This document shows, piece after piece, positions 20,113 to 59,487 of a stretch of 64,000 bases of DNA; within the stretch, counting starts at the first letter, position 1, and each line of letters opens with the position of its first letter. This stretch comes from Patescibacteria group bacterium (GTDB taxonomy: Bacteria > Patescibacteriota > Patescibacteriia > Patescibacteriales > JAQTRU01), in NCBI GenBank assembly GCA_028716725.1, contig JAQUPG010000006.1, positions 3,686 through 67,685 of the forward strand, in the 5' to 3' direction. The notes beneath the pieces were generated by a model. It ran no database searches. It was not told the origin of the DNA and saw nothing but the letters and a program-made list of their open reading frames with translations. The position numbers and the translations under genes were made by a program.

Positions 20113-20170
20113 ATATAAAAAATTTAAAAATATCTATTAACACTTTATCCTAAAATCCCTTAAAAATCAA

Positions 20171-20197
20171 ATGCCCAGAGAACGAATCTCCGGGCAT
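20171..20197. terminator. hairpin with T-runs on both strands
   Basis: atgcccagaga-acgaa-tctccgggcat (one mismatch). Flanked by ttgattttta on the minus-strand reading and atttttgttt on the plus. Confidence 0.5.
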
Positions 20198-20223
20198 ATT
20201 TTTGTTTATTGCGCGTTTAACGG

Positions 20224-20352
20224 TCAGCCATGGCCGCCGGGGTCATCTTCCTCTTCAGGATTTTCTTCTTCGGGATCGATCACGGGCATCTCGTCCTGCG
20301 GAACCTCTTTGCCTGGACCAATGCCGCGTTCTTCGTCATCTGGACGGCACAT
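20224..20352 (-). CDS. possible 42-aa highly acidic peptide
   Basis: ATG at 20352 preceded by GAGGGGGGGAAAT (strong SD). Peptide MCRPDDEERGIGPGKEVPQDEMPVIDPEEENPEEEDDPGGHG. GC-elevated patch, followed by the hairpin at 20171-20197. No family recognised. Confidence 0.25.
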   Translation of the reverse strand: MCRPDDEERGIGPGKEVPQDEMPVIDPEEENPEEEDDPGGHG

Positions 20353-20461
20353 ATTTCCCCCCCTCGGGTTTTCCGTCATCCGGAGTTTGGACAGCAGGCT
20401 TTTTAAGTCTTGCTGCCGCATTCATCATATCGCACACAATAATATCCCTCTGTTTTTAGAA

Positions 20462-21211
20462 TTAAACTTCGATTCCAACCGGACAATGGTCAGAACCACT
20501 TATTCCATCAAGAATGAACGATTTTTTTATATTTTTTATCATCTTAGCAGAAACGCAGAAATAATCAATCCGCCAGCCGATATTTCTCTCCCGCACATTA
20601 AACCGATAACTCCACCAGGAGTACTGGACTTTATTTTTGTTAAAATAACGGAAAGTATCTATAAAACCGGAATTTAAAAATTCAGTCATCCAGTTTCTTT
20701 CTTCGTAAGTAAAGCCCGGGTTGCCGATATTATCTTTCGGCCGGGCCAAGTCAATTTCCTCGTGCGCCACGTTAAAATCACCGGCGACAATAAGGGGCTT
20801 CCCCTTTTCCAACTTTTTTAAATATTTTAAAAGCTTATTATTGAAATCTAATTTAAAATCAAGGCGCGACAATTCATGGTTGGCATTGGGAAAATAAATA
20901 TTGGCTAAATAAAAATTGCCGCAGTCCAAAACCTGAACCCGGCCTTCATTATCCCAATCCAAATAAGGTAAAATTTTTGCCGACAATCCTTCTTTGACTA
21001 AAATCGCCGTGCCGCTATAACCAGGACGCTCGGCCGGATGCCAATATTCTTTATAATCCCTAAAATCAAACTCCTCTTTTTCCCTGGCTACGTCGGAAAT
21101 TTTAATTTCCTGCAAACATAAAATATCCGGCTTTTGTTTTTTTAAAAAATCCAAAAAACCTTTGCGGGTAACCGCCCTGATGCCATTAACGTTCCAGGAT
21201 AATATTTCCAT
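20462..21211 (-). CDS. xth: exodeoxyribonuclease III (AP endonuclease family 1)
   Basis: SWNVNGIRA, CLQEIK, NVAHEEIDL and SDHCPV motifs; 249 aa. Confidence 0.9.
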   Translation of the reverse strand: MEILSWNVNGIRAVTRKGFLDFLKKQKPDILCLQEIKISDVAREKEEFDFRDYKEYWHPAERPGYSGTAILVKEGLSAKILPYLDWDNEGRVQVLDCGNFYLANIYFPNANHELSRLDFKLDFNNKLLKYLKKLEKGKPLIVAGDFNVAHEEIDLARPKDNIGNPGFTYEERNWMTEFLNSGFIDTFRYFNKNKVQYSWWSYRFNVRERNIGWRIDYFCVSAKMIKNIKKSFILDGISGSDHCPVGIEV

Positions 21212-21221
21212 AATTTATGAA

Positions 21222-22607
21222 TTAACTCTCTAATTCTTTCTTAACATATTTATTCTGCCACTCGGAAACTACCTTGTCTCTTGCCTGGTTCGTCGCCGCT
21301 ATTTTTATTGCTTCTACTGTCCCCTTCACTAATGCCATTAATCCTTTGCCTCTAGCTTTTCTTATGTGCTCTAAAGCATCAAATTTATGCTCCCCGGACA
21401 CGGCATCAAAAACGTCTGGGTCAATCACGGAGAAAAAATATTCCGGATTTTCCTCTGTCGGCAACTTTACAAAAACATTGCCGGTATTTATCACATTTCC
21501 TCTTGCTTCCTTAAAGCCGGCGTCAGAATCAGAAATGTCCAAAACAACGCCGTCTGTTTTTTTCATGGCTTCAAGGCGCCTTAAAAAAACCTTCCAGGCT
21601 TCTCTAAAGCCCGGATCATCCTTTTTTATTTCCGAAGGAAGCTCTTTCACGGTTTGGCCTTTAGCATAATCCTGGCGGACCATTCTTTTATAATTTCCTT
21701 CCTTATCTTTATAAATCGTCATGTCGTTAAAAACTATCCCGGTCTTTACATTCCCGCCTTCCGGCTGCTCGTGGTCTAAGCGCAAACTAATAGCATGCAT
21801 TTCCCGCATCAGCTTTAAGACCGAGGCGAAATCAACATCATGCCTTTCTTTTGTTATTTTAATAACCTGCGGCCTTAATTCTTTTCCTAAAAAAATACTG
21901 TTTTTATTTTCCGCTCCTTCGGATTTTACGGTCGCTTCTTGCCCGGCGACTTCATCAAGATAATTCTGGACATCCTCGGCGATTGTCGGAATGCCGAACA
22001 TCTCGACCATCACTTCTTCCATCCTTGTCCTGTCCGCCAAAGAAGCGCCTTTAAACTCTTTATAAAGTTCATCTAATACCGCAATCCTTTCTTTAATTTC
22101 CTCCGGCGAAATATTTTTATCAATGTAAAGCAGATTGTAGGGCTGCTTAGACTTGGCAATAAAATTCTCAAGTTTCCCTTCCCCTTCCCGGTGCTTTTCC
22201 AATAACTCGGCTCTAAGGCCTTCTACGGTCCCTGACTGGCTGGCGGCCAGAGCTTTCTCCAATAGATGCGGAGGAATATCTGTTTCCTCGGAAATTTCCA
22301 TCATTTCTCCATGCTTTTCCGCCTCAATTTCCTGGTCATAGCCAATAATCCGGGTAAATAACCCCAATAATTTTTCGCGCGTCTCCGGATTTTCTATTTC
22401 CTCAATATTTCTCTGCATGGCCTCCTTGGTTTCAGCACTTAAACCCTCTTGTTTTCTTTCGGAAACACTATCAATTATCTCCCGTATTTGCTCTATCTCC
22501 GGCATTGGCTCCCCGCTTTCCTCTTCGGGATTAGATCGTTCTCTCTCATTACTTTCATCTTTAACTTCGGTATCTCTATTTTTTATTCCTTCTTCCATAT
22601 TGCCCAT
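21222..22607 (-). CDS. hypothetical acidic protein, 461 aa
   Basis: Long ORF tightly packed between a small ORF and xth. Glu-rich helical N-terminal half and a mixed alpha/beta C-terminal half. No family recognised. Confidence 0.7.
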   Translation of the reverse strand: MGNMEEGIKNRDTEVKDESNERERSNPEEESGEPMPEIEQIREIIDSVSERKQEGLSAETKEAMQRNIEEIENPETREKLLGLFTRIIGYDQEIEAEKHGEMMEISEETDIPPHLLEKALAASQSGTVEGLRAELLEKHREGEGKLENFIAKSKQPYNLLYIDKNISPEEIKERIAVLDELYKEFKGASLADRTRMEEVMVEMFGIPTIAEDVQNYLDEVAGQEATVKSEGAENKNSIFLGKELRPQVIKITKERHDVDFASVLKLMREMHAISLRLDHEQPEGGNVKTGIVFNDMTIYKDKEGNYKRMVRQDYAKGQTVKELPSEIKKDDPGFREAWKVFLRRLEAMKKTDGVVLDISDSDAGFKEARGNVINTGNVFVKLPTEENPEYFFSVIDPDVFDAVSGEHKFDALEHIRKARGKGLMALVKGTVEAIKIAATNQARDKVVSEWQNKYVKKELES

Positions 22608-22608
22608 A

Positions 22609-22764
22609 TTAATTATTTTTATTAATTTCCTTTCTTATTTTCTCTATTTTTTCTTTATCAACAATATTAAAAAACTCTTTGACGAGCTTACTTTGTTTTG
22701 CCCTTAAATCATTGATTTTCCTGGCATGCTTCTCGGCTATTTGTTTTATTTTCGCCTTATCCAT
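22609..22764 (-). CDS. small coiled-coil protein (51 aa)
   Basis: MDKAKIKQIAEKHARKINDLRAKQSKLVKEFFNIVDKEKIEKIRKEINKNN. Its stop lies 1 nt before the next start. The track N-terminal extension is low-complexity. Confidence 0.5.
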   Translation of the reverse strand: MDKAKIKQIAEKHARKINDLRAKQSKLVKEFFNIVDKEKIEKIRKEINKNN

Positions 22765-22843
22765 AAAATTGTTAAAATAATTAAAATATTTAATACTAGA
22801 ATAATTACACATTTTCAACTATTTATCAAGTCAAAAATTAATA

Positions 22844-23496: not shown

Positions 23497-24195
23497 ATGG
23501 AAAACGGGCAAAAACATTGGTATGAAAAGTGGTGGGGAATTCTGCTGATTCTTTTTTTAACTTTAACCGCTATAGTTTTAGTGGCCCTGGGTTTTTATAT
23601 TGCCGACCTGACCGGAAGAATTAAGGGCGGAACAACGGCAAATGGGCAATTGCTGGCAGAAATTTCCGATTATAAAACAGCTAAAGCCAACCCGGTAATA
23701 ACCGGGGCTAATAATTACTGGCTAGGCTCGGCCAAGCCAAAAATAACGATTGTGGAGTTTGCCGACTTTGATTGCCAAAATTGTAAAAATTCCTTTCCTA
23801 ATATCCGCGAAATTAGCTTAAATTACAAAAATGATGTTAAAATAATATTCAGGGATTTTCCCGTCTACGAGAACTCAATAAACTTGGCTTTAGCCGGGCG
23901 CTGCGCCGGAGAACAAGGGCTGTTCTGGCTGATGCATGACAAGCTTTATGCCCGGCAGGGAAACTTTAGCCCGGAAGAATTGCCGAATTTTGCTAACCAA
24001 ATCGGAGCGGATGTTAACAAATTTAATAATTGCCTAAGCAACGAAAAATATTTAAGCGACATAAAAAAAGATTATGCGGACGGGCAGTCCATGGGAATAA
24101 CCGGCACGCCCACCTGGTTTATAAACGGCTATAGAATTGAGGGGGACATTCCCCATGATTTATTTATCCAGATAATTGAAGAGTTAATAAAATAA
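23497..24195 (+). CDS. membrane-anchored DsbA-family thiol:disulfide oxidoreductase
   Basis: N-terminal TM WWGILLILFLTLTAIVLVALGFYIA. Thioredoxin-fold CxxC (FADFDCQNCK) and GTPTWFING near the C-terminus. Confidence 0.8.
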   Translation: MENGQKHWYEKWWGILLILFLTLTAIVLVALGFYIADLTGRIKGGTTANGQLLAEISDYKTAKANPVITGANNYWLGSAKPKITIVEFADFDCQNCKNSFPNIREISLNYKNDVKIIFRDFPVYENSINLALAGRCAGEQGLFWLMHDKLYARQGNFSPEELPNFANQIGADVNKFNNCLSNEKYLSDIKKDYADGQSMGITGTPTWFINGYRIEGDIPHDLFIQIIEELIK

Positions 24196-24215
24196 TTCAA
24201 ATACTACAAATTTAT

Positions 24216-24644
24216 ATTCAAATGCTTCAAATTTAGTTATATGGAAAAAGTTGCCCATAAGGAATTATCCTATAAGATAACTGGGTTATTATTTAAAACG
24301 CATAAAGAATTAGACCGCTTTAGAAACGAAAAGCAATATGCCGATTATTTTGAAGAATTGCTAAAGCAAGCAGGAATAAAATATGTCCGTGAGTATAAAT
24401 TTGAAGATCAACAATATGGCCAAGGAAGAGTTAGATGTATATGTGATTTTATAATAGACGACAAAGTTATTTTGGAATTTAAAGCGAAAAATTTTATTAC
24501 CAAAGAAGATTATTATCAGACTAAAAGATATCTAATAACATTAAACTTACAATTAGCCATTATAGTTAATTTTAGACAGGTGAGATTGGCGCCGAAGAGA
24601 GTTTTAAATAGTAACTTCTTAAAAAATATTTGAAGCATTTGAAT
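24216..24644. mobile_element. putative IR-bounded cassette carrying the GxxExxY gene
   Basis: Perfect 17-bp inverted repeat attcaaatgcttcaaat (24216-24232) / atttgaagcatttgaat (24628-24644). The right arm contains the gene's stop codon. Imperfect extension on both sides ends in aattcaaat / atttgaatt. Confidence 0.35.
24241..24633 (+). CDS. GxxExxY-family protein (PD-(D/E)xK-like, IVS-associated family)
   Basis: 130 aa. NEKQYADYFEELLKQAGIKYVRE then CDFIIDDKVILEFKA and LAIIVNF match the family pattern as I recall it. Confidence 0.7.
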   Translation: MEKVAHKELSYKITGLLFKTHKELDRFRNEKQYADYFEELLKQAGIKYVREYKFEDQQYGQGRVRCICDFIIDDKVILEFKAKNFITKEDYYQTKRYLITLNLQLAIIVNFRQVRLAPKRVLNSNFLKNI

Positions 24645-24661: not shown

Positions 24662-25210
24662 ATGCAGATGAAACAAATTAGAATTCACGGCCGTGGCGGG
24701 CAGGGAGTGGTAACCGCCGCCGAACTAATCGCGATTGCCGCTTTTGCCGACGGGAAGGAGGCGCAAGCCTTCCCTTCTTTCGGCGTGGAAAGAACCGGCG
24801 CCCCGATTGAATCTTTTGCCCGGATTGACGATAAGCCGATCAGAATCAGGGAGCACATTTATAAGCCGGACGTTTTAATTGTCCAGGATCCGTCTCTGCT
24901 TAATACGGTTGATATTACCAAGGGGGCGGGAGCAAATACTTTGGTTATAATCAACACAACGAAAAATAAAAATGAACTTAAATTAAACCTGAAAGAAGAA
25001 AATATTTATGCCGTAGACGCCACTAAAATCGCCTTGGAAATAATCGGAAAAAATATTGTTAATACCGTAATCCTCGGGGCTTTTGCCCGCGCCACCGGGC
25101 TGGTCAGTTTGGACGGCCTGAAAAAAGCCATTACTCGAAAATTTACCGATAAGGGGAAAGATGTAATAGAAAAAAATATAAAGGCAGTAGTTAAAGCTTA
25201 TAACGCTTAA
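24662..25210 (+). CDS. porG: pyruvate/2-oxoacid:ferredoxin oxidoreductase, gamma subunit
   Basis: IRIHGRGGQGVVTAAELIA motif; 182 aa; first gene of a 4-subunit set. Confidence 0.85.
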   Translation: MQMKQIRIHGRGGQGVVTAAELIAIAAFADGKEAQAFPSFGVERTGAPIESFARIDDKPIRIREHIYKPDVLIVQDPSLLNTVDITKGAGANTLVIINTTKNKNELKLNLKEENIYAVDATKIALEIIGKNIVNTVILGAFARATGLVSLDGLKKAITRKFTDKGKDVIEKNIKAVVKAYNA

Positions 25211-25215
25211 TCTAT

Positions 25216-25482
25216 ATGAAAATAAACATTACCGCTAAACCGGGTTCAACTTTAAAAAATAAAACCGGCGGCTGGCGGACATTTAAACCGAAAACCGATT
25301 TCAATAAATGTATTGGTTGCGGCCTTTGCGCCCGGGTTTGCCCGGAGGGGATAATAGAAATGCTAAATAATAAAGAAGGGAAACTGAAACCTAAGACCGA
25401 TTATGACTATTGCAAAGGCTGCGGCGTCTGCGCCGCCGAATGCCCGGTTAAAGCCATCATTATGGAATTAGATAAAAAATAA
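25216..25482 (+). CDS. porD: PFOR delta subunit (2x[4Fe-4S] ferredoxin-like)
   Basis: CIGCGLCARVCP and CKGCGVCAAECP cluster motifs; 88 aa. Confidence 0.85.
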   Translation: MKINITAKPGSTLKNKTGGWRTFKPKTDFNKCIGCGLCARVCPEGIIEMLNNKEGKLKPKTDYDYCKGCGVCAAECPVKAIIMELDKK

Positions 25483-25612
25483 AAAAGATACCAATATACG
25501 AATGAGTGCGAATGATACGAATCTATACTAATTGACTTTAAAAAATATTGTCAGCATATTCGTATTTATTAGTATTATTAGCATTATTCGTATATTAGTA
25601 TCTTGTCATTTT

Positions 25613-26788
25613 ATGAAACAAATACTCGAAGGTTCCAGGGCCATCGCCCTGACAATAAAAAATATCAACCCGGCAGTCATTTCTGCTTACCCGATTACTC
25701 CCCAAACTCATATTGTCGAAGATCTGGCTAAATTTAAAGCTAACGGGGAGGCCGATTACGAATATGTTCGGGCGGAAAGCGAATTTGCCGCGGCTTCGAT
25801 TATAGAGGGCGCCAGCGCTACCGGCGTGCGGGTTTATTCGGCCACTTCTTCCCAGGGCCTGCTTTTAATGGCTGAGGTTATATTTAATATTGCCGGCATG
25901 CGCCTGCCAATAGTTATAACCTGCGCCAATCGGGCGGTGTCCGCGCCCATTAATATCTGGAACGACCAACAGGACGCTATGACCGTCAGGGACGCCGGCT
26001 GGATTATGTTTTTTGCCGAAAACCACCAGGAAGCGGTTGACCAGCATATTATCGCTTATAAAGTGGCGGAGAAATTAAATCTGCCGGTAATGGTTAATAT
26101 TGACGGCTTTGTTTTAACCCATACTTACGAGCCGGTGATTATACCCGAAGCTAAACAGATAAAAAAATATTTGCCGGACTATAAGCCTAAAGCCGGCCAG
26201 TTTTTAAATCCGGCTAACCCTGTTACCATGGGCGCTTTTGCCACTCCGGCCCATTACATGGAAATCCGCCAGGACCTGCACGATGACCTGACTTCCGGCT
26301 TAAAAGTAATTAATGAAGAATATAAAAAATATTATGAAATTTTCCGAAATCCGACATCCGAAATCCGACATCCGAAATCCGAAAATGGTCTAGTCGAATA
26401 CTACGGTCCGAAGAATCCAAAGACAATTTTAGTGGCTATGGGTTCGGTCATCGGCACTATGAAAGAAGTTGTTGACGAACATAATTCTTCTTTCCCGGGA
26501 GATAAAGTCGGCATATTAAAAGTAAAAACTTACCGGCCTTTCCCGGCCGAAGAGGTTATAAAAATTATAAAGCCGGCCAAATATGTCGCGGTTATTGATA
26601 AATCCATTTCCCTGGGCCAGATTGGCCCCTTAGCCAGCGACCTAAAAGCGGCTTGCCAAGGGAAAATTAAGGGTAAAATTCAGAGTTTCGTTGTTGGTTT
26701 GGGCGGACGGGACGTTACGAAGGAAATGATTAAAAAAATAATTAATGAAGTTAAAAAGAATGATGATGAAATAAAATTTATTGGTTAG
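25613..26788 (+). CDS. porA: PFOR alpha subunit
   Basis: MKQILEGSRAIAL..AYPITPQT..SEFAA motifs. The track start at 25532 adds 27 aa encoded by spacer repeat DNA, so the ATG at 25613 is preferred. Confidence 0.85.
   Translation: MKQILEGSRAIALTIKNINPAVISAYPITPQTHIVEDLAKFKANGEADYEYVRAESEFAAASIIEGASATGVRVYSATSSQGLLLMAEVIFNIAGMRLPIVITCANRAVSAPINIWNDQQDAMTVRDAGWIMFFAENHQEAVDQHIIAYKVAEKLNLPVMVNIDGFVLTHTYEPVIIPEAKQIKKYLPDYKPKAGQFLNPANPVTMGAFATPAHYMEIRQDLHDDLTSGLKVINEEYKKYYEIFRNPTSEIRHPKSENGLVEYYGPKNPKTILVAMGSVIGTMKEVVDEHNSSFPGDKVGILKVKTYRPFPAEEVIKIIKPAKYVAVIDKSISLGQIGPLASDLKAACQGKIKGKIQSFVVGLGGRDVTKEMIKKIINEVKKNDDEIKFIG
26343..26384. repeat. TCCGA(A/C)A x6 heptamer array inside porA
   Basis: 42 nt, in frame, encoding RNPTSEIRHPKSEN. 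Same heptamer and same + strand orientation as the array in rsmA. Confidence 0.9.
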
Positions 26789-26794
26789 TAGCCA

Positions 26795-26825
26795 CCCCCT
26801 TGATAAAGGGGGCCAGGGGGATTTT
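26795..26825 (+). repeat. C/G hairpin plus G-rich tail element (family A)
   Basis: ccccctt-gata-aaggggg followed by ccagggggatttt. Other copies at 47779, 56034, 62022, 43138 and 34633. Confidence 0.85.
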
Positions 26826-26850
26826 AAAAGTTAAACCTCCCCTACCCCTC

Positions 26851-26871
26851 CCTGCCTACCGGACAGGCAGG
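26851..26871. repeat. CCTGCCT hairpin
   Basis: cctgcct-accggac-aggcagg. A related cctgcctg-tcgg-caggcagg lies at 30503-30522, after porB. Confidence 0.7.
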
Positions 26872-26898
26872 CTTTCGAAGGAGGGCATACATAATAAT

Positions 26899-27924
26899 AT
26901 GAAACTTTCTAATTTAGTTAAAACTTCTAACGGGGTGAAAAAGCTTCCCAAAATTTTAACAATAACTTTTCTCTCCATTTTAATTTTCCAAATGGTTTGT
27001 TTGATTATTTTACTGACGATCCCTAAAAAAACCCAGGCGGCTGACATAAGATTCAACCCGCAGGTTGAAATTCCTGGCTTGGAAGAAGAAGTTCAAAAGG
27101 ATGGGGGGGGATACTATGTCGGCACAGAAACAGAAGTAATGAAAGATGGTAAAAAAGTGAAAACATTCAGCAGCGACCTCTTGGGGAAATACATCCAGGC
27201 AATTTACAATTACGCCATCGGCATTGTCGGAATTTTAGCCGCCGTGGTTTTGATGTTCGGGGGAGTAATCTGGCTTACGGCCGGCGGCAGCCCGGAAAAA
27301 GTTAATGAGGCTAAGGCCTGGATTGGCGCATCTCTTTCCGGCCTAGTTTTGGTTTTATGCTCTTATATGATTTTAAATACCATTAATCCGGATTTAGTCA
27401 GCTTTAAGCCGATAGAAGTGCAAACTATTGAAAAAATGCCTGTAATGGGTTGCTGCGAATATAAGGAATGTGATGATAATATTACGGAACCGGACTGCAG
27501 AAAAAAGGAGGGATATATTGCCTGGCGGGAAGGAAGTATTTATACTTGCAATGCTGAAAATAAATGCGAAAAATCATGTTTTTGGATAACCCTTAGAAAT
27601 GATGAATATTGCAGAAGTATCGGGTATGAAATGGAGGGAACCAGCGAAATGTGCGGGATAGGGCAATTTGGAGCAGCTGCTTACTCTACGGGGGGAGAAT
27701 TCAAATCCGTTTGCTGTTGCAGCCATGGGAAAGTGGCTAATCCTTGCGAAGGCAAAAAAAATGGGGACGAATGCACTACAAGCGGAGGAGATAAAGGATA
27801 TTGTATGCATAATGCGTGCCATACTTGCAAGCCGGCAGGCACTACTTGCACTCAGTGGTTATATGGAAATAAAGAATGCTGTAACGGAGATTGCCAAGGA
27901 TTAAAAGACCCTAAATGTAATTAA
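26899..27924 (+). CDS. VirB2/TrbC-like pilin-domain protein with 22-Cys C-terminal domain
   Basis: Signal anchor ILTITFLSILIFQMVCLIILLTIPKKTQA. Two-helix hairpin IYNYAIGIVGILAAVVLMFGGVIWLTAGGSPEKVNEAKAWIGASLSGLVLVLCSYMIL. C-terminal 160 aa contain 22 Cys. The track start at 26800 (TTG) lies in repeat DNA, so the ATG at 26899 is preferred. Confidence 0.7.
   Translation: MKLSNLVKTSNGVKKLPKILTITFLSILIFQMVCLIILLTIPKKTQAADIRFNPQVEIPGLEEEVQKDGGGYYVGTETEVMKDGKKVKTFSSDLLGKYIQAIYNYAIGIVGILAAVVLMFGGVIWLTAGGSPEKVNEAKAWIGASLSGLVLVLCSYMILNTINPDLVSFKPIEVQTIEKMPVMGCCEYKECDDNITEPDCRKKEGYIAWREGSIYTCNAENKCEKSCFWITLRNDEYCRSIGYEMEGTSEMCGIGQFGAAAYSTGGEFKSVCCCSHGKVANPCEGKKNGDECTTSGGDKGYCMHNACHTCKPAGTTCTQWLYGNKECCNGDCQGLKDPKCN
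27202..27400 (+). repeat. conserved pilin-hairpin coding block, copy 1
   Basis: Direct repeat of 28170-28368. By eye about nine of ten bases are identical, with most differences at third codon positions. Confidence 0.85.
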
Positions 27925-27935
27925 TAATTTAACAA

Positions 27936-28994: not shown

Positions 28995-28998
28995 CAAT

Positions 28999-29214
28999 AT
29001 GCTTTATTTTACCAAGTATGCGGAAAAAAAATTTGATATTTTAAACAAGCATAAAGTCTATTTTACCCGCGAGCAGATAGAAGAAACCTTAAAGTTGCCC
29101 GACAAAACGGGCAAAAGAGGAAAATATTTAACCGCCTCCGGGGACGGAATTAAGGTAATTTATAAAAAAGAAAATGAGTTAATAAAAATCATCACTTTTT
29201 TCCCTGAAAAATAA
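28999..29214 (+). CDS. DUF4258-like small protein (putative toxin component)
   Basis: 71 aa. FTKYAEKKFDIL...IKVIYKKENELIKIITFFP pattern. Its stop overlaps the next start (TAATG). Confidence 0.55.
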   Translation: MLYFTKYAEKKFDILNKHKVYFTREQIEETLKLPDKTGKRGKYLTASGDGIKVIYKKENELIKIITFFPEK

Positions 29215-29429
29215 TGCAATACGATAATGAGGCCAATTTAATAAGCTGGGAAATAACGGGAGGCAAAATCAGCCACGCCCGGGAATTCGGCAATTTTATA
29301 ATTCATTTTTCTCCGGCGGGTAAACCGATTTTAGTGGAAATTTTAGACGCTTCCAAATTCGTCGGGCAGCTTGATAAGATAAAAGTTGGGGATTTAAAAA
29401 ATATTGAAAAAACGATTCCGGCGAGTTAG
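29214..29429 (+). CDS. DUF2283-family small protein (putative antitoxin component)
   Basis: YDNEANLISWEI...GKPILVEILDASKFV matches the YDxEaDaLyi...GIEILdAS pattern. Confidence 0.65.
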   Translation: MQYDNEANLISWEITGGKISHAREFGNFIIHFSPAGKPILVEILDASKFVGQLDKIKVGDLKNIEKTIPAS

Positions 29430-29434
29430 CATCA

Positions 29435-29548
29435 TTAAGATTTAAGAATTAGGATTTAAGATTTACGAATAAAAAATGGCCACTTTGTAACTAAATAACC
29501 ACTTCAAAAATCCTTCTTAAATCTTAATTCATAAATCTTAAATCTTCT
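29435..29548. repeat. spacer-filling imperfect palindrome (TAAGATT words)
   Basis: ttaagatttaagaattaggatttaagatttacgaat ... ttcttaaatcttaattcataaatcttaaatcttc, upstream of porB. Confidence 0.8.
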
Positions 29549-29556
29549 ATACGGAT

Positions 29557-31022: not shown

Positions 31023-31060
31023 AAAATTATTTCAAATTCTTAATTCCTTATTCTTAATTC

Positions 31061-35361: not shown

Positions 35362-35392
35362 AATAAAACAGGGCGAACATCTCTGTCCGCCC
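35362..35392 (-). terminator. rho-independent terminator of dapB
   Basis: Minus strand GGGCGGAC-AGAGAT-GTTCGCCC followed by TGTTTTATTC. Confidence 0.6.
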
Positions 35393-35408
35393 CTTGTTAT
35401 CATACTGC

Positions 35409-36209
35409 TTACTTCAGGCCCAAAACATCCTGCATGTCGTAAAGTCCCGGATTCTGCTCCGGAGCCCACTCGGCCGCCCGAACGAAACCTTGAGCAAAAG
35501 CGTCGCGGGAAGAAACCCGATGAACCAGCTCAATCCGCTCTCCCGGACCGAAAAAGGTAACTGTGTGTTCACCCACCACATCGCTCGCGCGAAGAGAGTG
35601 GATGCCGATCTGGTCTTTCGGCCGAGGATAACCCATTCCATGCCGGCCATAGCAGGCGACATCTATCAGTTTCTGGCCTCGGACCCCGGCGACAATTTCC
35701 GCCAATCTATCGGCTGTGCCGCTGGGAGCATCCTTTTTCTGATCATGATGGATCTCAATGATTTCAACATCATATCCATCCCCCAGAATTGCCGTCATTT
35801 TGGCCACTAAGGCAAACATCGCGTTTGCCCCGACACTAAAATTCGGCGCCAAAACGATGGGAATCCACTCGGCAGCCAAATCGAGATAATGTCTGGCTTC
35901 ATCATCCAGACCAGTCGAGCCAATCACCATCGGCTTTATACAACTTACAGCCAATTTCGCATTAGCCATAAATGCTTCCTGACCGCTTACGTCAATGACA
36001 ACGTCAGACGAAGCAATAACCGAGGGCAGGTCATCAGAGTCCGAAGGAGTAAAAGAAATCTTCGTCCCTGGAATCGGAAAACCTGAAATCTTCGCTGGTT
36101 TTTCAATTGCCCCGACCAACTCGATTCCGTCTGTTTCATTGATCGCCGGGATAATTCGGCTACCCATTCTGCCAGCCCCGCCAATCACGGTTACTTTTAC
36201 AGTTTTCAC
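35409..36209 (-). CDS. dapB: 4-hydroxy-tetrahydrodipicolinate reductase
   Basis: N-terminal VIGGAGRMG Rossmann motif, EIHHDQKKDAPSGTA signature and APNFSVGAN. GTG start preceded by AAGGGAG. Visibly higher GC than its neighbours. Confidence 0.85.
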   Translation of the reverse strand: MKTVKVTVIGGAGRMGSRIIPAINETDGIELVGAIEKPAKISGFPIPGTKISFTPSDSDDLPSVIASSDVVIDVSGQEAFMANAKLAVSCIKPMVIGSTGLDDEARHYLDLAAEWIPIVLAPNFSVGANAMFALVAKMTAILGDGYDVEIIEIHHDQKKDAPSGTADRLAEIVAGVRGQKLIDVACYGRHGMGYPRPKDQIGIHSLRASDVVGEHTVTFFGPGERIELVHRVSSRDAFAQGFVRAAEWAPEQNPGLYDMQDVLGLK

Positions 36210-36315
36210 GGTACTTCTCCCTTCTTAAAGTAGTTATTGTTAGTGGGCAACTTCAAAAAGAACATCAAATAAAATTATCATAACTTTAAAAATAAGTCAA
36301 CCCGTCGTAATGGGT

Positions 36316-41147: not shown

Positions 41148-41176
41148 TTGACAAGAAAAAAATTTTTTGCTAACTT
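41148..41176 (+). promoter_or_regulatory. possible sigma70-like promoter
   Basis: TTGACA (41148-41153), 17-nt spacer, TAACTT. Lies upstream of the SD-led small ORF pair. The -10 box is weak. Confidence 0.3.
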
Positions 41177-41217
41177 CTACTTATATTTTACACCAAAAAA
41201 TCCTAAAGGGAGGGAAA

Positions 41218-41412
41218 ATGGCAACTGGCCAAATCTGGGGCAAAATACCAGAGACAATTCTTTTGGAAGATTTCACTGATGCGAATTCAGGAATCACGCT
41301 TACTGCGGAGACAATTCTGCAAACGCGCGGTTTTTCCGGCAGCCACTATCAGTGTTTAGTCGGCGATCGCAAGTTCGTTTGGGTGCCGAAAAATATAACA
41401 AAAACGGAATAG
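41218..41412 (+). CDS. small protein (64 aa), paralog of the next ORF
   Basis: ATG preceded by AAAGGGAGGGAAA. C-terminus TRGFSGSHYQCLVGDRKFVWVPKNITKTE. Confidence 0.5.
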   Translation: MATGQIWGKIPETILLEDFTDANSGITLTAETILQTRGFSGSHYQCLVGDRKFVWVPKNITKTE

Positions 41413-41431
41413 ACTAAAACGGGGGAAATGA

Positions 41432-41614
41432 ATGAGCTCAACATTAGTAGTCCTAACAGAAGAACACTATGATGCAGGCACTGATACCACTATACCGCCA
41501 AACGTTTCATTTGTAGTAAAAGGCACAAGAGGAACGGGGAATGACAAAGAACTTTGTTGCGGCGGAGGCGGAATAGAATTCTGGGTTCCGGAAAGTAAAA
41601 CAAAACCGGCATAA
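41432..41614 (+). CDS. small protein (60 aa), paralog of the previous ORF
   Basis: ATG preceded by ACGGGGGAAATGA. C-terminus TRGTGNDKELCCGGGGIEFWVPESKTKPA. Confidence 0.5.
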   Translation: MSSTLVVLTEEHYDAGTDTTIPPNVSFVVKGTRGTGNDKELCCGGGGIEFWVPESKTKPA

Positions 41615-41645
41615 AACTATCGCCTATTTGGCGAAAAACATTCGG

Positions 41646-41676
41646 GGTCGACTTCAATAGTCGGCCTTTTTTATTT
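41646..41676 (+). terminator. rho-independent terminator
   Basis: ggtcgact-tcaat-agtcggcc (one G-T pair) followed by ttttttatttttt. Confidence 0.65.
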
Positions 41677-43128
41677 TTTAAAAATCTCGTTTAATTTCTC
41701 CCTTAAAGTTTTGCCCTCCAGCTCTAATTTTATTTCTTTAATTTCTATACTATCATCAATTTCATCATCGGCTTTAAGGCCTGGAATAGAAATTATAAAA
41801 CTATCTTTATTCCATTCGCGATAAGCATTATTCAGATCAAATTCAGCTTGGGCTGTTTTCCAGCCGTCTTTTTCTTCCGGAATTCTGTAGCCAGCTAAAA
41901 TATAGTTTATGCCGATTGGGTTAGCGGAAAAGCTTTCGTCCACTTTTTTAAAATTCGGGTCCAGTAAATTTCCCTGGTTAAAGCTAAAAACTCCGCTGCC
42001 GGATAAAATTACATCTCCCTTGGCAATTTTTATTTCGCTAACTTTATTTTCGAACATCAAGCTAAATTGCCGGTAAGTGGAGCTGATTTCCAATTCTTTA
42101 TCACCTACTTTAATATTTTGTAAACTGCCCGGATTTATAGTCTGGGCGTTGATCAGCTGGCTGTCAGTATAAAGAGAAATATTTTTGTCATTTTCATTTT
42201 CCAGCCAGATTCTGTTTAAAAAAGCCACTCTACTTTGGCTGGTAGTTATTTTTTTGGTAATGACATCGTCGTTGGCGCGCAGCTCTACTTTATAAACCCC
42301 TTCGGGCAGATTGCTTTCAAAAAAATTCAGGCTTCTCACCTCTTTCATCTCGCCGTTATCGGTTTTTACGCCGTCATCGTCCAAATGCCGGCTGGTGATC
42401 AGCTGGTCGCCGTAATATAAATTAACATCAACGGCGTCGCTGTCTTTATTCTGGTTTAAATCCAAGAAGGTAAAAGTAAAATCTAAGTCTTCATTCTTAA
42501 GATAAGTATAAAATTGATAAGTGCCGCGCAAAGAGTAATTAATTTCCTGCTTAACCTTACCGGCTTCATAATTCTTAATTAAAAATTCTTTTTTAAAATC
42601 ATAATTATACAAAGCGATTTCCTCGGCTGGCGGCAAATTAGCTAAAAAGTTTTCAATTGTGTCATATTTTTTTTCTCTCTGGAGTAACATCACGCCGTCT
42701 TTTTCTACTACATTCCAGATTAAAGCCAGTTGATCAATGATTTTATTTTCTATGGGCTGCAATTGGTAGCGCCAAATAATTTTGTCCATTAACACTCCGG
42801 CTTCTACCAAAGGCCGCTCGCTTTCATTTTTGTATTCTAAAGTAAGTTTAGCTTTATTAAATTTTCTTGGCGTGCGCAAGGAAAAATAAACCGGGTCCCC
42901 GATTATTTTCTGGCTTCCATCTTCTATGGGTTCCTCTCTTTCCTCCGGGGTTAATTGCCCGATGAATTTATTGGCTCCGGCCAGCTGATAATCACCATTG
43001 GTAAAATCATAAAAATAAGTGATTTTCCCGCTTGGCACAATCGCCAGATACAAAAAAAAGACCACGGCCAAAGCTAAAACCAACCATAAAAATATCCTTA
43101 ATTTAACTATCCCGCTTATTTTTTTCAT
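41671..43128 (-). CDS. membrane-anchored hypothetical protein (485 aa)
   Basis: N-terminal TM LRIFLWLVLALAVVFFLYLAIV, then a beta-rich extracytoplasmic region. No family recognised. Confidence 0.75.
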   Translation of the reverse strand: MKKISGIVKLRIFLWLVLALAVVFFLYLAIVPSGKITYFYDFTNGDYQLAGANKFIGQLTPEEREEPIEDGSQKIIGDPVYFSLRTPRKFNKAKLTLEYKNESERPLVEAGVLMDKIIWRYQLQPIENKIIDQLALIWNVVEKDGVMLLQREKKYDTIENFLANLPPAEEIALYNYDFKKEFLIKNYEAGKVKQEINYSLRGTYQFYTYLKNEDLDFTFTFLDLNQNKDSDAVDVNLYYGDQLITSRHLDDDGVKTDNGEMKEVRSLNFFESNLPEGVYKVELRANDDVITKKITTSQSRVAFLNRIWLENENDKNISLYTDSQLINAQTINPGSLQNIKVGDKELEISSTYRQFSLMFENKVSEIKIAKGDVILSGSGVFSFNQGNLLDPNFKKVDESFSANPIGINYILAGYRIPEEKDGWKTAQAEFDLNNAYREWNKDSFIISIPGLKADDEIDDSIEIKEIKLELEGKTLREKLNEIFKK

Positions 43129-44940: not shown

Positions 44941-44977
44941 AGGGGGCCGACAAAGATTAAAACATCTTCATGGCCCC
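44941..44977 (-). terminator. possible terminator of the 143-aa gene
   Basis: Minus strand GGGGCC, 23-nt loop, GGCCCC, then CTTTTATTTTATC. The large loop makes this weak. Confidence 0.35.
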
Positions 44978-45002
44978 AAAAATACAACGAGCAGAATCAC
45001 TT

Positions 45003-45434
45003 TTAACCACCGGCAACTCGACGAACGGTATCCGCGATGTCCCGAAAACCATTGTCGTAACCAACAAAGTGGACTCGGGCTTTCTTAACCCGCGCGTCGT
45101 GGTCATGCACCACTCCACGGCGCAAATCCTGAGTCGAGATAAGTACGATTGGAATCTCGAGCCCTTGCTTACGCAGCATCTCGGCCCGGAGCAGACCAGT
45201 TGAAAAATTTCTGTCAGCCTGGCGATAACCAAGCTCATGACAACCTGCAAGCATGTGAAGCACGACGACCTTAAATGGTTGGCCGGATACTGACAAAAGC
45301 TGTTTCGCAAAGGGGAAATTATCCCCGCCGACACAGACTATGGCCATATCACTGTTCTCTCGCAAATGCCCGAGAATTGCCGCCGCCAGCCAACCTTCAT
45401 CATAACTGACGTAAAGTACTCCGATTTCTTTCAT
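45003..45434 (-). CDS. hypothetical alpha/beta protein (143 aa) in a GC-elevated islet
   Basis: ATG preceded by GAGAGGAGAAAGGC (SD). Alternating beta/alpha pattern (IGVLYVSY, IVCVGG, FKVVVLHM, IPIVLIS). No family recognised. The overlapping ORF 44957-45334 was judged spurious. Confidence 0.6.
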   Translation of the reverse strand: MKEIGVLYVSYDEGWLAAAILGHLRENSDMAIVCVGGDNFPFAKQLLSVSGQPFKVVVLHMLAGCHELGYRQADRNFSTGLLRAEMLRKQGLEIPIVLISTQDLRRGVVHDHDARVKKARVHFVGYDNGFRDIADTVRRVAGG

Positions 45435-45545
45435 GCCTTTCTCCTCTCGATTTTTTCTGCACCTATAGTCTGCTTACCCGAATAAAATATACTAACATAT
45501 ATAAAAAATTTGTCAAAAATAATAAAATCCGTACATTAACTTGCC

Positions 45546-55550: not shown

Positions 55551-55700
55551 ATGATAAATCTATTGATAATGATTTTAAGACAACAAAAAACCTCAAGGCC
55601 TTAGGGCTTTGAGTTTAAAAAGCTATTTAATTAAGTTAGAAAGGAAAAAATAAATCACCTTTGGGGAAAGAGTTTATAAATTAAGAAGCATGGGGATTTA

Positions 55701-55765
55701 CCCCGCACCTTTTAGGAAAGATACGGGGGTGTACATATAAGTAACAGATTTAAAAAGGTGCGGGG
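55701..55765. repeat. 13-bp-arm inverted repeat in rpoB upstream region
   Basis: ccccgcacctttt (55701-55713) / aaaaggtgcgggg (55753-55765) with a 39-nt loop. Confidence 0.8.
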
Positions 55766-56033
55766 TTTATAAATGGCAAAGGAGAAAAACGGAATAGAGA
55801 ATAAAACAAAAAAACGGCTAAACAAGCGCAAACAGAGACGCAAATATTTCCGTTTTTATAACGTTTTGTATATGACTAGTATTAGTTTATTACTTGTTCT
55901 TATACTAACAGCTAAGAAAAAATATGTCAAGCGGATAAGCAAAATAATTAAAATAAATCAAATCCCTTAATTTTTTCTTTATTTTTAGCTAAAATCTAAT
56001 TTTTCCTAAAAAGTTATCCACAGGACATCGTCT

Positions 56034-57574: not shown

Positions 57575-58195
57575 TTATTTAATATATTGATCAAAATCTT
57601 TAATAGTAGTGACAATAATTTCTACATTGTTATTAAATTTAATTTTATTTTGTGGGATATTAACAACAGTTTTATAACCAAAAACAAGCATGGGTTTGAC
57701 GAATTTATTTGGGTTCTCTCCGAATTTTAAATTTCTCACTAATTTACAATGTTTTAGTAAAGCAATCAAAATATCAGTGTTATCAAAACCATTTATGTAT
57801 AGTGAACCATTATTAAACATTACGTTACCCGCCCAATTTTTTGCTTCCACTCCATAATACGAGTTACCTTTTGTGATTAAAAAATCCAGATCGCCATAGA
57901 CAGTCTCTATGTGTTGGACGTATTTAATCCATAATTTTTTTAGTTTATTCTCTATTTGTGTTTCCAAATTAAGCCCCTTCCCATAAGAATCTTGCCTGTT
58001 TATACAATATTCGATAATAAAAAGAACAAATACCCCAACGGCGCCCAGCACCAACCCTACAACAAAATTTGACAAGTTATTATTAAAAAAGAAATATCTT
58101 CCTGCAAAATAAGCGAAAAGAATTAAAATAACTACAATAACATATCTGTATAATTCATAATTCCTGATTTTACTTTTTAGATAATTATTCGGCAT
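57575..58195 (-). CDS. membrane-anchored NERD (nuclease-related) domain protein
   Basis: Two N-terminal TM helices, then GKGLNLETQIENKLKKL...YGDLDFLIT...YGVEAKNWAG (D..D/ExK-type NERD core). Confidence 0.6.
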   Translation of the reverse strand: MPNNYLKSKIRNYELYRYVIVVILILFAYFAGRYFFFNNNLSNFVVGLVLGAVGVFVLFIIEYCINRQDSYGKGLNLETQIENKLKKLWIKYVQHIETVYGDLDFLITKGNSYYGVEAKNWAGNVMFNNGSLYINGFDNTDILIALLKHCKLVRNLKFGENPNKFVKPMLVFGYKTVVNIPQNKIKFNNNVEIIVTTIKDFDQYIK

Positions 58196-58200
58196 GAAAT

Positions 58201-58443
58201 TTATTTTTTTATAATCTTAAGCTTTTCCGCCCGGGATAATTTTTTTATTCGGCATTCTTCCTTTTGCGCCAGAGATTTATTTTTTTTCTTAACAGAATAA
58301 ACTAATTTTACCGGCCGCCGGCCTTTCGTATATTTAGCTCCCAAAACTGAATCATTATGCTCCTTTATTCTGCGTTTAAGGTTGGTTGTTACGCCAGTAT
58401 AAAAACTCTTGTCCTTGCATTGCACTATATATACATACCACAT
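58201..58443 (-). CDS. GIY-YIG nuclease family protein (UPF0213-like)
   Basis: WYVYIVQCKDKSFYTGVTTNLKRRIKEHN; 80 aa. Confidence 0.85.
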   Translation of the reverse strand: MWYVYIVQCKDKSFYTGVTTNLKRRIKEHNDSVLGAKYTKGRRPVKLVYSVKKKNKSLAQKEECRIKKLSRAEKLKIIKK

Positions 58444-58458
58444 TATATTTATATATAA

Positions 58459-58695
58459 TTAAACCGGGCAATCGCAATCCTTATGTTTTAAAATTATTTT
58501 TTGCTCTTGCTTGGTGTTTATAAAGGGTTTGGTCAGATTGGCGGCCAGAAAAAACAGGGTAATAACAATATAGGTTAAAACCGCGACTAAAATCTTGCGG
58601 GCCAAGCTCGTTTCCCAGGCCTTGTCCGCTTCCACGCGCTTGTTGCGCTCTTTTATCTTTTTTATCTCGTTTTTTAACTCTTGTAATTCATCCAT
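58459..58695 (-). CDS. small coiled-coil/TM protein (78 aa)
   Basis: MDELQELKNEIKKIKERNKRVEADKAWETS, then TM ILVAVLTYIVITLFFLAA. Confidence 0.55.
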   Translation of the reverse strand: MDELQELKNEIKKIKERNKRVEADKAWETSLARKILVAVLTYIVITLFFLAANLTKPFINTKQEQKIILKHKDCDCPV

Positions 58696-58842
58696 AAAAA
58701 TAGGTTAAATTATACCCTAATTTTCCCACTTTTGGCCTCAAAAGTCAATTTGACAAGGAATTAGTAATTAGGAAGTTCATAGGTCCTAAGCTCCTCTAAC
58801 AGGGGCTTAGGACCTTTTGGGTTTACCTTTCGAAAGGGGGCA

Positions 58843-58882
58843 AATAAAATAAAAAAGCCCTGTACCGCATAGCGCAGGGCTT
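58843..58882 (-). terminator. rho-independent terminator of the Zn-ribbon gene
   Basis: Minus strand AGCCCTG-12 nt-CAGGGCT followed by TTTTTTATTTTATTT. Confidence 0.7.
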
Positions 58883-58915
58883 CAAGTCTTTCTCCTTGGG
58901 TGTTATTACCATCCT

Positions 58916-59338
58916 TTAGTAAGATGGGCGCATTAGAGCGCCGCAACGTCGGCATTTTATAACTGTTGAATGGCCACAATCATCTGTGTAGATTGTTTCT
59001 TTTGGGTTTGGATAATTGCCGCAGTTACAGCATTCTCCGTCTCTGTCTTTGGCCCAGGGCAAATCCCAATAATTGATGCCTTTATCTTTTTGCGGCGGAC
59101 CTGGCCGGAACCTTCCCTGGCTGGCAGACGGAAAAGCGCCAGCCAGGCCTCTGGCCACACTTCCCTGCTTCGGGATCTTTTTCGCTCCCGGCACTTCCTG
59201 CGGCCGGCCGCCGGTATCGGTAAAGTGTAGGATGCCGCCGATCCAGGCCATTTTCCTGTGGGGATATTCTTTTTCCCATTTTTTCAACTCATTTTTTCTG
59301 TCCGCCACTTCTGATCCGGCTGACCTTGCTTTACCCAT
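58916..59338 (-). CDS. hypothetical protein with C-terminal CxxC...CxxC zinc-ribbon-like motif (140 aa), GC-elevated islet
   Basis: ATG at 59338 preceded by AAGGAGGTTTGCC. C-terminus ECCNCGNYPNPKETIYTDDCGHSTVIKCRRCG. The track start at 59413 lacks an SD. Confidence 0.6.
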   Translation of the reverse strand: MGKARSAGSEVADRKNELKKWEKEYPHRKMAWIGGILHFTDTGGRPQEVPGAKKIPKQGSVARGLAGAFPSASQGRFRPGPPQKDKGINYWDLPWAKDRDGECCNCGNYPNPKETIYTDDCGHSTVIKCRRCGALMRPSY

Positions 59339-59487
59339 GGCAAACCTCCTTTGATGATGGTTTTCTTTGAATTTTGTTTTTATCTTACTATTTTTAAAAA
59401 GAAAGTCAAACAAAAAAACCGCCTCGTTCGGCGGAGCTCACGACAGGCTTTTTAGGCGGAATTTTAATAAAATATATGGGTCAAGTG

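Follow-up and report, generated by a model that had tools for sequence, protein, structure and literature searches.

Shine-Dalgarno-led expression cassettes in a Shine-Dalgarno-poor Patescibacteria locus

Gene content and translation starts of the locus

The locus described here is a 64 kb stretch of DNA (the window, meaning the whole of the stretch analysed) with 42% GC, ~57 open reading frames (ORFs) and one tRNA, in which most genes start without a Shine-Dalgarno (SD) motif and six ORFs, distributed over five small patches, are preceded by strong ones. The same DNA has also been deposited in two 'Patescibacteria group bacterium' metagenome-assembled genomes (MAGs; GCA_028712785.1 and GCA_028713775.1), and the sequencing runs SRR22315506, SRR22315508 and SRR22315509 derive from the same population. 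Its rpoB is 75%, 74% and 68% identical to those of 'Patescibacteria group' MAGs and a single-cell genome and 66% identical to that of a Candidatus Magasanikbacteria MAG, while the best relatives outside the Candidate Phyla Radiation (CPR) belong to Chloroflexota, Bacillota and Actinomycetota (45–55% identity). Sequence affinities place the window in a Patescibacteria (CPR) genome near Candidatus Magasanikbacteria. The core genes comprise rpoB, rpoC, leuS, lepA, recJ, murE, murJ, secD/F and a split por operon, and CPR-typical content is provided by two T4SS_pilin proteins, a 23S_rRNA_IVP protein, PDDEXK_3, DUF2283, LigD_N, rtcB and a giant protein of 2,878 residues. No rRNA gene was found in the window, in any related CPR locus examined or in the 10 kb beyond the window start, and rpsU, rpsR, rpsF and the 16S gene are all missing from the window. 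With the ~10 kb that adjoin it, the window covers ~75 kb of the source genome; the relatives used for comparison are related CPR loci labelled L005 to L096, of which L013 is the single-cell genome AM-311-M06 and L005 is JGI Ga0265297_10001961.

SD strength was scored at 57 curated starts as the pairing energy of positions −18 to −4 with ACCUCCUUU, from which the host's own 16S 3′ end may differ. The scores are bimodal. Strong SDs of −8.6 to −12.5 kcal/mol precede six starts (orf140, orf64, a 41-residue peptide, orf143, dapB and orf60), three more (hyp899, hyp161 and hyp485) have intermediate scores of −6 to −8 kcal/mol, and the other 48 score −5.7 kcal/mol or weaker, the majority of them above 0. 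An energy of −8.5 kcal/mol is reached by 1.5% of the 1,656 ATGs in the window, and strong SDs are enriched at the curated starts ~7-fold over chance (6/57; binomial p ~2e-4). All six SD-led ORFs present a complementarity of at least 5 nt to the CCUCC core of the 16S tail. Their spacing is 3–7 nt from the motifs quoted in the original prediction, every one of which was found in the sequence at the spacing given, and 4–7 nt from the GGAGG-type core.

The SD-less leaders are 80–90% A/T over positions −20 to −1, and G is nearly missing from −9 to −1. The claim that native genes have A/T-only leaders therefore stands for the bulk of the window, 48 of the 57 starts being SD-less and A/T-rich, but not for murE, which alone among the native starts of the window lacks an A/T-rich leader and whose ATG directly follows a perfect 10 bp GC hairpin (GCGAGCCCCG-aatctt-CGGGGCTCGC; 60907–60935, minus strand) that has no U-tract. 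Two genes that had been set apart as partial exceptions, hyp899 (start 2828, minus strand; AAAGGGAG) and hyp161 (start 43914, plus strand; GAAGGAAAG), carry their motifs as quoted; the label 'VirB6-like' attached to hyp899 was not confirmed, the protein having no Pfam match. The apparent SD match of hyp485 is the stem of an adjacent hairpin.

Ten more genes of the same genome were read in the 10 kb that adjoin the window at its start, and none has an SD. One crude pipeline applied throughout gave an SD-led ORF fraction of 0.14 for the window and of 0–0.32, mostly at or below 0.2, for related CPR loci, against 0.64 for a Clostridium locus and 0.42 for a Geobacillus locus. The SD-poor condition holds for the lineage as a whole. 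Compensation by the SD for a structured start region was ruled out, the folding energy over −30 to +30 being equal in both classes (p=0.28), as was the idea that the SD-less genes have leaderless mRNAs, there being no positional TANNNT peak before their starts. Within coding sequence SD-like strings are depleted, but reversed and complementary control motifs are equally so (0.67–0.73), and SD avoidance in coding sequence is thus uninformative on whether the anti-SD is active.

Directly upstream of many SD-less starts lie tandem arrays with a period of 7–8 nt and 3–6 copies, each with its own unit (15769–15890, 17102–17133, 17535–17559, 24195–24235, 29435–29546, 31036–31062, 31475–31511, 35242–35272, 37162–37200 and 45665–45696). 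Their units include CAUAACG (5.3 copies) before RNase H, UUAACAAU (4 copies) before rtcB, GCUAAAA (4.4 copies) before lepA and UUUUAGU (4.6 copies) before a glycine-transporter gene. Comparable arrays were seen in intergenic regions of relatives, and none was reported in an SD-led cassette leader. They may be slippage products or leader elements. Period-7 arrays also occur inside coding sequence, in rsmA (14095–14126, AAATCCG, 4.6 copies), leuS (19390–19430, AATTGAA, 5.7 copies) and porA (26343–26384, TCCGAAA, 6 copies), those of porA and leuS at or near domain boundaries. A 7 nt period is unusual in ORFs and suggests that heptamers are being actively duplicated in this genome.

Organization and conservation of the SD-led cassettes

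Three of the patches bear out their earlier description as self-contained expression units: dapB, the orf64–orf60 pair and orf143 each possess a full-consensus, extended −10 promoter, a 5′ untranslated region (UTR) of ~30–55 nt, an SD and a terminator, and this layout is kept in their orthologues. The dapB cassette (35370..36300, minus strand) comprises a promoter at 36272–36300 (TTGACT-N15-TGATAATTT), an SD at 36217–36223 (AAGGGAG, 7 nt before the GTG), an ORF at 35409–36209 that starts with GTG at 36209 and whose product is matched by both DapB_N and DapB_C of Pfam, and a terminator hairpin with U-tract at 35370–35393. Leader, SD and GTG are kept in L091, L093, L094 and L096, the ~55 nt leader being conserved throughout at the nucleotide level. 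Over five genomes the nucleotide conservation of this leader (36210–36271, minus strand; UUUUAUUUGAUGUUCUUUUUGAAG...) exceeds that of the DapB protein (52–73%), and the leader may act as a regulatory RNA or bind a protein. A conserved leaderless upstream ORF ahead of dapB (MFFLK..., with a GTGA overlap) was ruled out, as it is frameshifted in L094 and has lost its ATG in L096. The order ACS-murJ-dapB-lepA-...-recJ-RNaseH recurs in three related genomes, and murJ and ACS adjoin dapB in a fourth. The identity of dapB at four-fold sites (in identical residues) is 61, 58, 48 and 41%, and lepA, murJ and recJ give 37–66% in the same genomes; the divergence of dapB tracks that of these genes, which indicates that it has been co-inherited with its neighbours.

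The orf64–orf60 operon is a two-gene unit (41148..41678, plus strand) with a promoter at 41148–41176 (TTGACA-N15-TGCTAACTT), orf64 at 41218–41412 behind the SD GGGAGGG (41208–41214, 3 nt before the ATG), orf60 at 41432–41614 behind GGGGGA (41421–41426, 5 nt before the ATG) and a terminator hairpin at 41645–41667 followed by a U-tract. The two genes are weak paralogues, and just two other small members of their family were found among 1.84 billion representative proteins. Operon, promoter, both SDs and terminator are conserved in L095 and L096. In L096, whose murJ is 83% identical, the pair occupies the same slot between ACS and hyp485, and in L095 homologues of the flanking hyp85 and hyp485 are retained beside it; in the more distant L011 murE, rpoB, rpoC, hyp485 and ACS are contiguous, and orf140, orf143 and orf64/60 fall in blocks that are missing there.

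The orf143 cassette (44943..45516, minus strand) has its promoter at 45489–45516 (TTGACA-N14-TGTTAGTAT), a 5′ UTR of ~48 nt, an SD at 45441–45448 (GAGAGGAG, with AGGAG 6 nt before the ATG), an ORF at 45003–45434 with its ATG at 45434, and a terminator hairpin at 44943–44977 followed by a U-tract. Homologues form three clusters (47–68% identity) on other CPR-like contigs, in three different positions, with 51 invariant alignment columns. All four family members share the promoter type and the SD, and these two elements alone are conserved in the alignment, the UTR diverging. In L096 restriction-modification-like genes stand in place of the orf143 block. The AlphaFold model of the product (pLDDT 82, pTM 0.82) has a CheY/receiver-like, flavodoxin-like (beta-alpha)5 fold, and its top Foldseek matches are the receivers of Spo0A, VraR, CheB and NarL, at query-normalised TM-scores of 0.6–0.7. 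No Pfam family, Response_reg included, matched the sequence, and an invariant LHMLAGCHELG, read by eye, follows strand 3 without a phospho-acceptor Asp. The protein is thus predicted to be receiver-like in fold, with no demonstrable membership of the REC family. The segment 40346–46228 is reproduced in four independent assemblies at 99.98–100% identity, which excludes a chimeric assembly at the borders of the orf64/60 and orf143 patches.

An orf143 homologue also lies in a cluster of small GC-rich ORFs (0.49–0.54) in L005 (6000–10500), which have very strong SDs, including AAAGGAGGTGATCAC, and alternate with AT-rich SD-less ORFs, ~1 kb from a tyrosine recombinase/Xer-like gene. In L006, a second sample, the call directly upstream of the orf143 homologue starts differently (131 versus 104 residues), the SD-led 104-residue ORF upstream of the homologue being identical.

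Of the two remaining patches, the orf140 cassette (58855..59409, minus strand) has a promoter-like sequence at 59382–59409 (TTGACT-16-TAAGAT), the strongest SD of the window (AAGGAGG, 59345–59351, 6 nt before the ATG; dG −12.5), an ORF at 58916–59338 with its ATG at 59338 and a terminator hairpin at 58855–58882 followed by a U-tract. Its C-terminus is Cys-rich (CCNCG...CRRCG), its GC by codon position is flat (0.52/0.52/0.51), and it belongs to a 3.9 kb block that L011, the closest relative, lacks between its murE and rpoB. The weakest of the five units is that of the 41-residue acidic peptide (20171..20366, minus strand), situated between xth and leuS; it consists of an SD at 20357–20365 (GAGGGGGGG, 4 nt before the ATG; dG −11.5), an ORF at 20227–20352 with its ATG at 20352 and a terminator hairpin at 20171–20197 followed by a U-tract, and upstream of it a consensus promoter could not be recognised. 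In GCA_028712785.1 the same ORF is annotated as a gene of 42 residues. A role of the patches as structured RNAs, whether genes or leaders such as a T-box ahead of leuS, was ruled out, no Rfam match being found at gathering scores or at E<=1; the peptide upstream of leuS contains no Leu.

The promoters of the cassettes are distinctive. The pattern TTGAC[AT]-N13-15-TGnTAnnnT, which combines a full −35 with 17-nt-class spacing and an extended −10, has four copies on the two strands of the window, against 0.07 expected, and three of them stand 30–60 nt upstream of SD-led starts (orf64, orf143 and dapB). The fourth (55902–55930, minus strand; leader 55551–55930) provides a comparator from the SD-less native class, standing ~350 nt ahead of the rpoB start at 55550, which implies a long rpoB leader; the rpoB start itself (tcttaaaatcattatcaatagatttatcat-ATG, dG +0.4) is SD-less. 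A 65-residue ORF (55773–55970, plus strand) antisense to this promoter and leader is probably spurious. In L013, L016 and L017 a promoter of the same type is found ~200 nt upstream of rpoB. The 224 kb of relatives contain 16 full-consensus promoters, of which 11 have an SD-led start within 110 nt, namely those of orthologues of the dapB, orf143 and orf64/60 families and of a 94-residue ORF in L015; among the other five, three precede rpoB, one precedes an SD-led 85-residue gene of L013 (its SD scored separately) and one is without assignment. As had been claimed, all five patches end in a stable GC hairpin followed by a U-tract, although SD-less units too have such terminators.

The SD is conserved across orthologues in 5/5 cases for dapB, 4/4 for orf143 and 3/3 each for orf64 and orf60, at four-fold-site identities of 27–61%, and AAAGGAGGTGATC, a 13 nt complement of the canonical 16S tail, stands ahead of a small gene in one relative. 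Enrichment at starts, a spacing of 4–7 nt and conservation among orthologues argue that these SDs are functional and do not arise by chance. Elsewhere in the clade, lepA has an SD in L094 (7040–7081; GAAAGGAGATTTT-ATG) and lacks one in the window, L091 and L093, so that the SD status of a core gene can change within the clade. A purD-like gene of L013 (region of L013 2115–3467 and 3661–3960) has a GTG start after CAAGGAGGTGATTA and is a second biosynthetic gene besides dapB with an SD and GTG in an SD-poor CPR genome; the 85-residue ORF that adjoins it has a GC content at third codon positions (GC3) of 0.84, against a locus median of 0.37.

Composition and ancestry of the patches

The patches were originally described as GC-elevated, which is so for four of them, at the 93rd–99th percentile of same-size windows (the top 1–7%), while orf64/60 is at only the 63rd percentile, though above its own flanks. 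Mean GC within the window is 0.463 for SD-led and 0.399 for SD-less genes (p=0.04), and some SD-less genes (hyp336, rpoB, porB, the TSP3 protein and the giant gene) contain stretches as rich in GC. Within the window the elevation resides in the first two codon positions (GC1, p=0.015; GC2, p=0.03), GC3 being level with that of the other genes (0.44 versus 0.43, p=0.72) and third-base composition being that of the core genes. Gly, Ala, Arg and Pro make up 0.31 of the SD-led proteins against 0.235 of core proteins, and FYMINK residues (Phe, Tyr, Met, Ile, Asn and Lys) are fewer. It is thus the richness of the proteins in Gly, Ala, Arg and Pro, expressed at the first two codon positions, and no foreign mutational bias, that accounts for the extra GC; the patches are compositionally distinct in a manner unlike that of a recent import from a GC-rich genome. 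Synonymous choice does set the six genes apart, since core genes avoid GCA, CCA, ACA, TCA and CGA and prefer TTA, which neither the SD-led genes nor the low-GC accessory genes do. The codon fractions in core genes are 0.06 for GCA, 0.08 for CCA, 0.10 for ACA, 0.09 for TCA and 0.02 for CGA, and this avoidance of NCA and CGA hints at a tRNA-pool or modification constraint on core genes only. As a sign of import, composition as a whole gives a mixed picture: synonymous choice is non-core in all six genes, GC3 is not raised and third bases remain core-like. The link between SD and GC recurs beyond the window. In a pool of 254 ORFs, drawn from the window and from 15 CPR loci related to it, the 19 SD-led ORFs exceed the median GC of their locus by 0.077 (p=2e-6); the excess is 0.085 over the first two codon positions (p=5e-8) and 0.055 over the third (p=0.03). 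These p-values count orthologues separately and so overstate independence, the distinct families in the SD-led pool being dapB, orf143, orf60/64 and several singletons.

The clearest GC3 outliers in the window are not the SD-led genes but AT-rich accessory genes (NERD, PDDEXK_3, hyp253 and hyp69). These belong to a second compositional class of SD-less genes, with GC 0.23–0.35 and GC3 0.22–0.36 and several of them with nuclease-type domains, which includes NERD at 57575–58195, PDDEXK_3 at 24241–24633, GIY-YIG at 58201–58443 and the genes at 36375–37136 and 22609–22818. Both hyp253 and the murE–rpoB block, with NERD and GIY-YIG, are missing in the relatives compared. The por (pyruvate:ferredoxin oxidoreductase) operon is interrupted (24662–30489), porG-porD-porA being set apart from porB by two T4SS_pilin-domain genes (26800–28994) and two small ORFs, one of them DUF2283.

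Across five genomes dapB holds a GC of 0.50–0.54 and a GC3 of 0.44–0.55 despite 40–60% four-fold-site change, which indicates a maintained composition and not a fading donor signal. Beyond the CPR clade its best named matches (~50% identity) are in Geoalkalibacter, Desulfuromonadaceae, Syntrophobacterales and Anaeromyxobacter. Compared with solved structures, the protein scores 200–209 bits to 5tej, 5tem and 4ywj, which we take to be proteobacterial DapB structures, and 170 bits to 1arz, presumably from E. coli; structure types whose source organisms we take to be S. aureus, Thermotoga, M. tuberculosis and Corynebacterium give 64–118 bits. This affinity to Proteobacteria differs from the affinities of rpoB and fits a transfer older than the divergence of these genomes, so that dapB probably came into the clade long ago from a Proteobacteria-like donor. 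By its matches it is the only one of the SD-led genes to show a foreign affinity.

Alternative explanations and the nature of the cassettes

The original prediction saw in the SD-led patches units acquired from SD-using, higher-GC donors outside the CPR, which had kept their SD, terminator and composition, an account that we consider unlikely. It can draw on the Proteobacteria-type DapB (170–209 bits against 64–118 for the Firmicute, Actinobacterial and Thermotoga types), whose best named non-CPR matches, in Desulfuromonadales and other Deltaproteobacteria, are not the Chloroflexota, Bacillota and Actinomycetota of rpoB, as well as on the occurrence of orf143 and orf140 in blocks missing from L011 or L096, on the lack of relatives of orf140, on the non-core synonymous codons and Gly/Ala/Arg/Pro-rich proteins of all six genes and on the high GC3 of some SD-led genes in relatives. 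Amelioration is slower at codon positions 1 and 2 than at position 3 in the Lawrence-Ochman model, and raised GC at the first two positions with normal GC3 would fit old imports. However, for three of the five patches (dapB, orf64/60 and orf143) the nearest relatives belong to this same CPR clade, an outcome that the original prediction had itself named as refuting it, and every orf143 or orf64/60 homologue found lies in a CPR-type or syntenic contig behind the same promoter and SD. Both dapB and orf64/60 are syntenic, dapB is co-inherited with its neighbours and keeps its GC through four-fold-site turnover, and the cassette promoters share their consensus with the native rpoB promoter. Of four features defining a recent horizontal acquisition, GC3 atypicality, foreign nearest homologues and mobility signatures were not found, and the fourth, absence or displacement in relatives, was seen for orf143 and orf140, dapB and orf64/60 being syntenic instead. 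No integrase is present among the Pfam annotations of the window ORFs, and around the three patches examined there are no mobility genes and no flanking repeats other than short AT-rich ones at chance level, which rules out transposon-like borders; nor was a tRNA-adjacent site seen. A viral or defence origin was ruled out by the lack of any match in viral-contig scans (orf143, orf140 and orf64) or among the phage and defence families of PHROGs and PADLOC (all five small ORFs). As a general explanation acquisition is thus unsupported, an old acquisition being plausible for dapB alone, and an SD with raised GC in an AT-rich genome is no proof, alone, of recent import.

It is scarcely credible that the patches are an artefact, with chance ORFs, non-coding RNAs or chimeras preceded by chance G-rich runs. 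SD-like strings do occur at 1.5–2.3% of ATGs where local GC is 0.4–0.6, against 0.5% where it is below 0.4, orf140 shows no codon-position periodicity in GC and has no homologues, and the 41-residue peptide lacks support from conservation. Set against this are the protein-level conservation of dapB, orf143, orf64 and orf60, the confident fold of orf143, the retention of SD, spacing and promoter across genomes, the lack of an Rfam family in any patch at E<=1 and the recurrence of 40346–46228 in independent assemblies, by which the artefact explanation is largely refuted for three patches. A further alternative, which we regard as improbable, is an SD regulon that is gated, the anti-SD being usually masked on the 30S platform as in Bacteroidia and the cassettes being translated, in a co-regulated manner, only by those ribosomes that, as a sub-population or in a particular state, have their anti-SD free. 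Flavobacterium johnsoniae shows the same pattern of scarce SDs, A/U-rich leaders and rare, strong, conserved SDs (PMC7797042, PMC9976891, PMC13000453); some SDs here are unusually long (9–13 nt of complementarity in orf140 and L005 genes), like the extended SD of Flavobacteriales rpsU; and bS21 is reportedly often absent or enlarged in Parcubacteria (PMC9297842), so that platform composition varies in the CPR. The window, however, holds nothing on ribosome composition, no common function is evident among dapB, the receiver-like protein and the small proteins of unknown role that make up the SD-led set, and simple constitutive SD use explains the pattern equally well.

The reading that we favour, with a probability of about 0.55, is that an SD-poor lineage has kept a functional anti-SD together with a small set of complete canonical cassettes that are resident in it. 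The dichotomy, the conservation, the synteny and the composition are direct observations, and the default start signal is an A/U-rich, G-depleted leader without SD pairing; the ribosome would still recognise the SD, and a few transcription units would exploit this recognition. Each cassette would run from a full-consensus sigma-70 promoter with an extended −10, through a 5′ UTR of ~30–55 nt, an SD 4–7 nt before the start codon (ATG or GTG) and one or two short ORFs, to an intrinsic terminator, and the cassettes would be residents of the lineage kept by selection. On this reading dapB and the orf64–orf60 operon would have been inherited vertically at fixed positions, orf143 would move as a whole cassette between positions within genomes of the same clade, and origins would be mixed, dapB being probably an old Proteobacteria-like entry and the small ORFs clade-specific. 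The 16S anti-SD would be intact and used, because a G-rich motif is not expected to persist in AT-rich leaders without selection and because of the 13 nt complement in a relative. High expression of the cassettes would also be expected from promoters that are as close to the consensus as that of rpoB. The promoter dichotomy that parallels the SD dichotomy, the conservation in relatives and the codon usage are new here with respect to the original prediction.

Several observations weigh against a resident set of cassettes. In synonymous codon usage all six SD-led genes are among the 12 of 56 that fit the core genes worst (hypergeometric p ~3e-5), which would also fit a foreign origin or a different selective regime. 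Certain SD-led genes of relatives have a GC3 0.18–0.46 above the locus median, and the pooled GC statistics enter each orthologue as an observation of its own. Among 5.8 billion proteins orf140 matches itself only and is an ORFan, and it and the 41-residue peptide are candidate proteins, nothing showing that either is conserved or translated, although no search for homologues of the peptide was made. Finally, about half of Parcubacteria 16S genes are reportedly without a detectable CCTCCT (Tsurumaki et al. 2022, PMC9297842).

Bacteroidia provide the closest analogy. Their ribosomes are SD-blind, bS21, bS18 and bS6 holding the 16S tail, and rpsU retains a strong SD for autoregulation (PMC7797042, PMC9976891, PMC13000453). 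The window resembles Flavobacterium johnsoniae in its scarce SDs, A/U-rich leaders and tiny conserved set of strong SDs, with an anti-SD presumed retained, but belongs to another phylum, has several SD-led units where Bacteroidia have essentially one (rpsU) and no ribosomal gene among them, and its SD-led units have the strongest promoters and their own terminators; the likeness is one of genomic pattern. By this analogy there could be two separable initiation channels, a default SD-independent one and a small SD-dependent, strong-promoter regulon of clade-specific small proteins gated by anti-SD availability, evolved independently of the bS21-controlled SD recognition of Flavobacteriia, which we likewise rate as a long shot. 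Parcubacteria reported to be without an anti-SD (PMC9297842) are similar as a CPR lineage with a lower dependence on SD pairing; that report concerns rRNA, mainly of a uL1-lacking subgroup, whereas the conserved, well-spaced SDs seen here argue for an anti-SD that is present and used. Like genomic islets and phage 'morons', the patches are units of one gene that bring their own promoter and terminator, use codons atypically and, for orf143 and orf140, lie in variable regions, but no mobility genes, repeats or viral relatives were found, GC3 is typical, two units are syntenic and the detectable homologues are of the same clade. The signals themselves are those of E. coli and Bacillus textbooks (TTGACA, 17 nt spacing, TGnTAnnnT, an SD to CCUCC at 4–7 nt and an intrinsic terminator), although here, unlike in textbook genomes, the full set is the exception, confined to a handful of units.

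CPR/Patescibacteria ribosomes are without several proteins and rRNA segments, and to our knowledge their choice of start codons is essentially unstudied. In this clade, as sampled by the locus and ~225 kb of relatives, the SD is dispensable for nearly all genes, rpoB, rpoC, lepA and leuS among them, yet is strictly kept in a few cassettes, and gene callers and start-site models for such genomes should assume neither regime. The cassettes offer natural strong promoter, SD and terminator parts for CPR genetic tools, and they set up a test of whether SD recognition in the CPR is constitutive or gated as in Bacteroidia; if the latter were true, this ultra-small symbiont would have in its cassettes a switchable expression system of its own.

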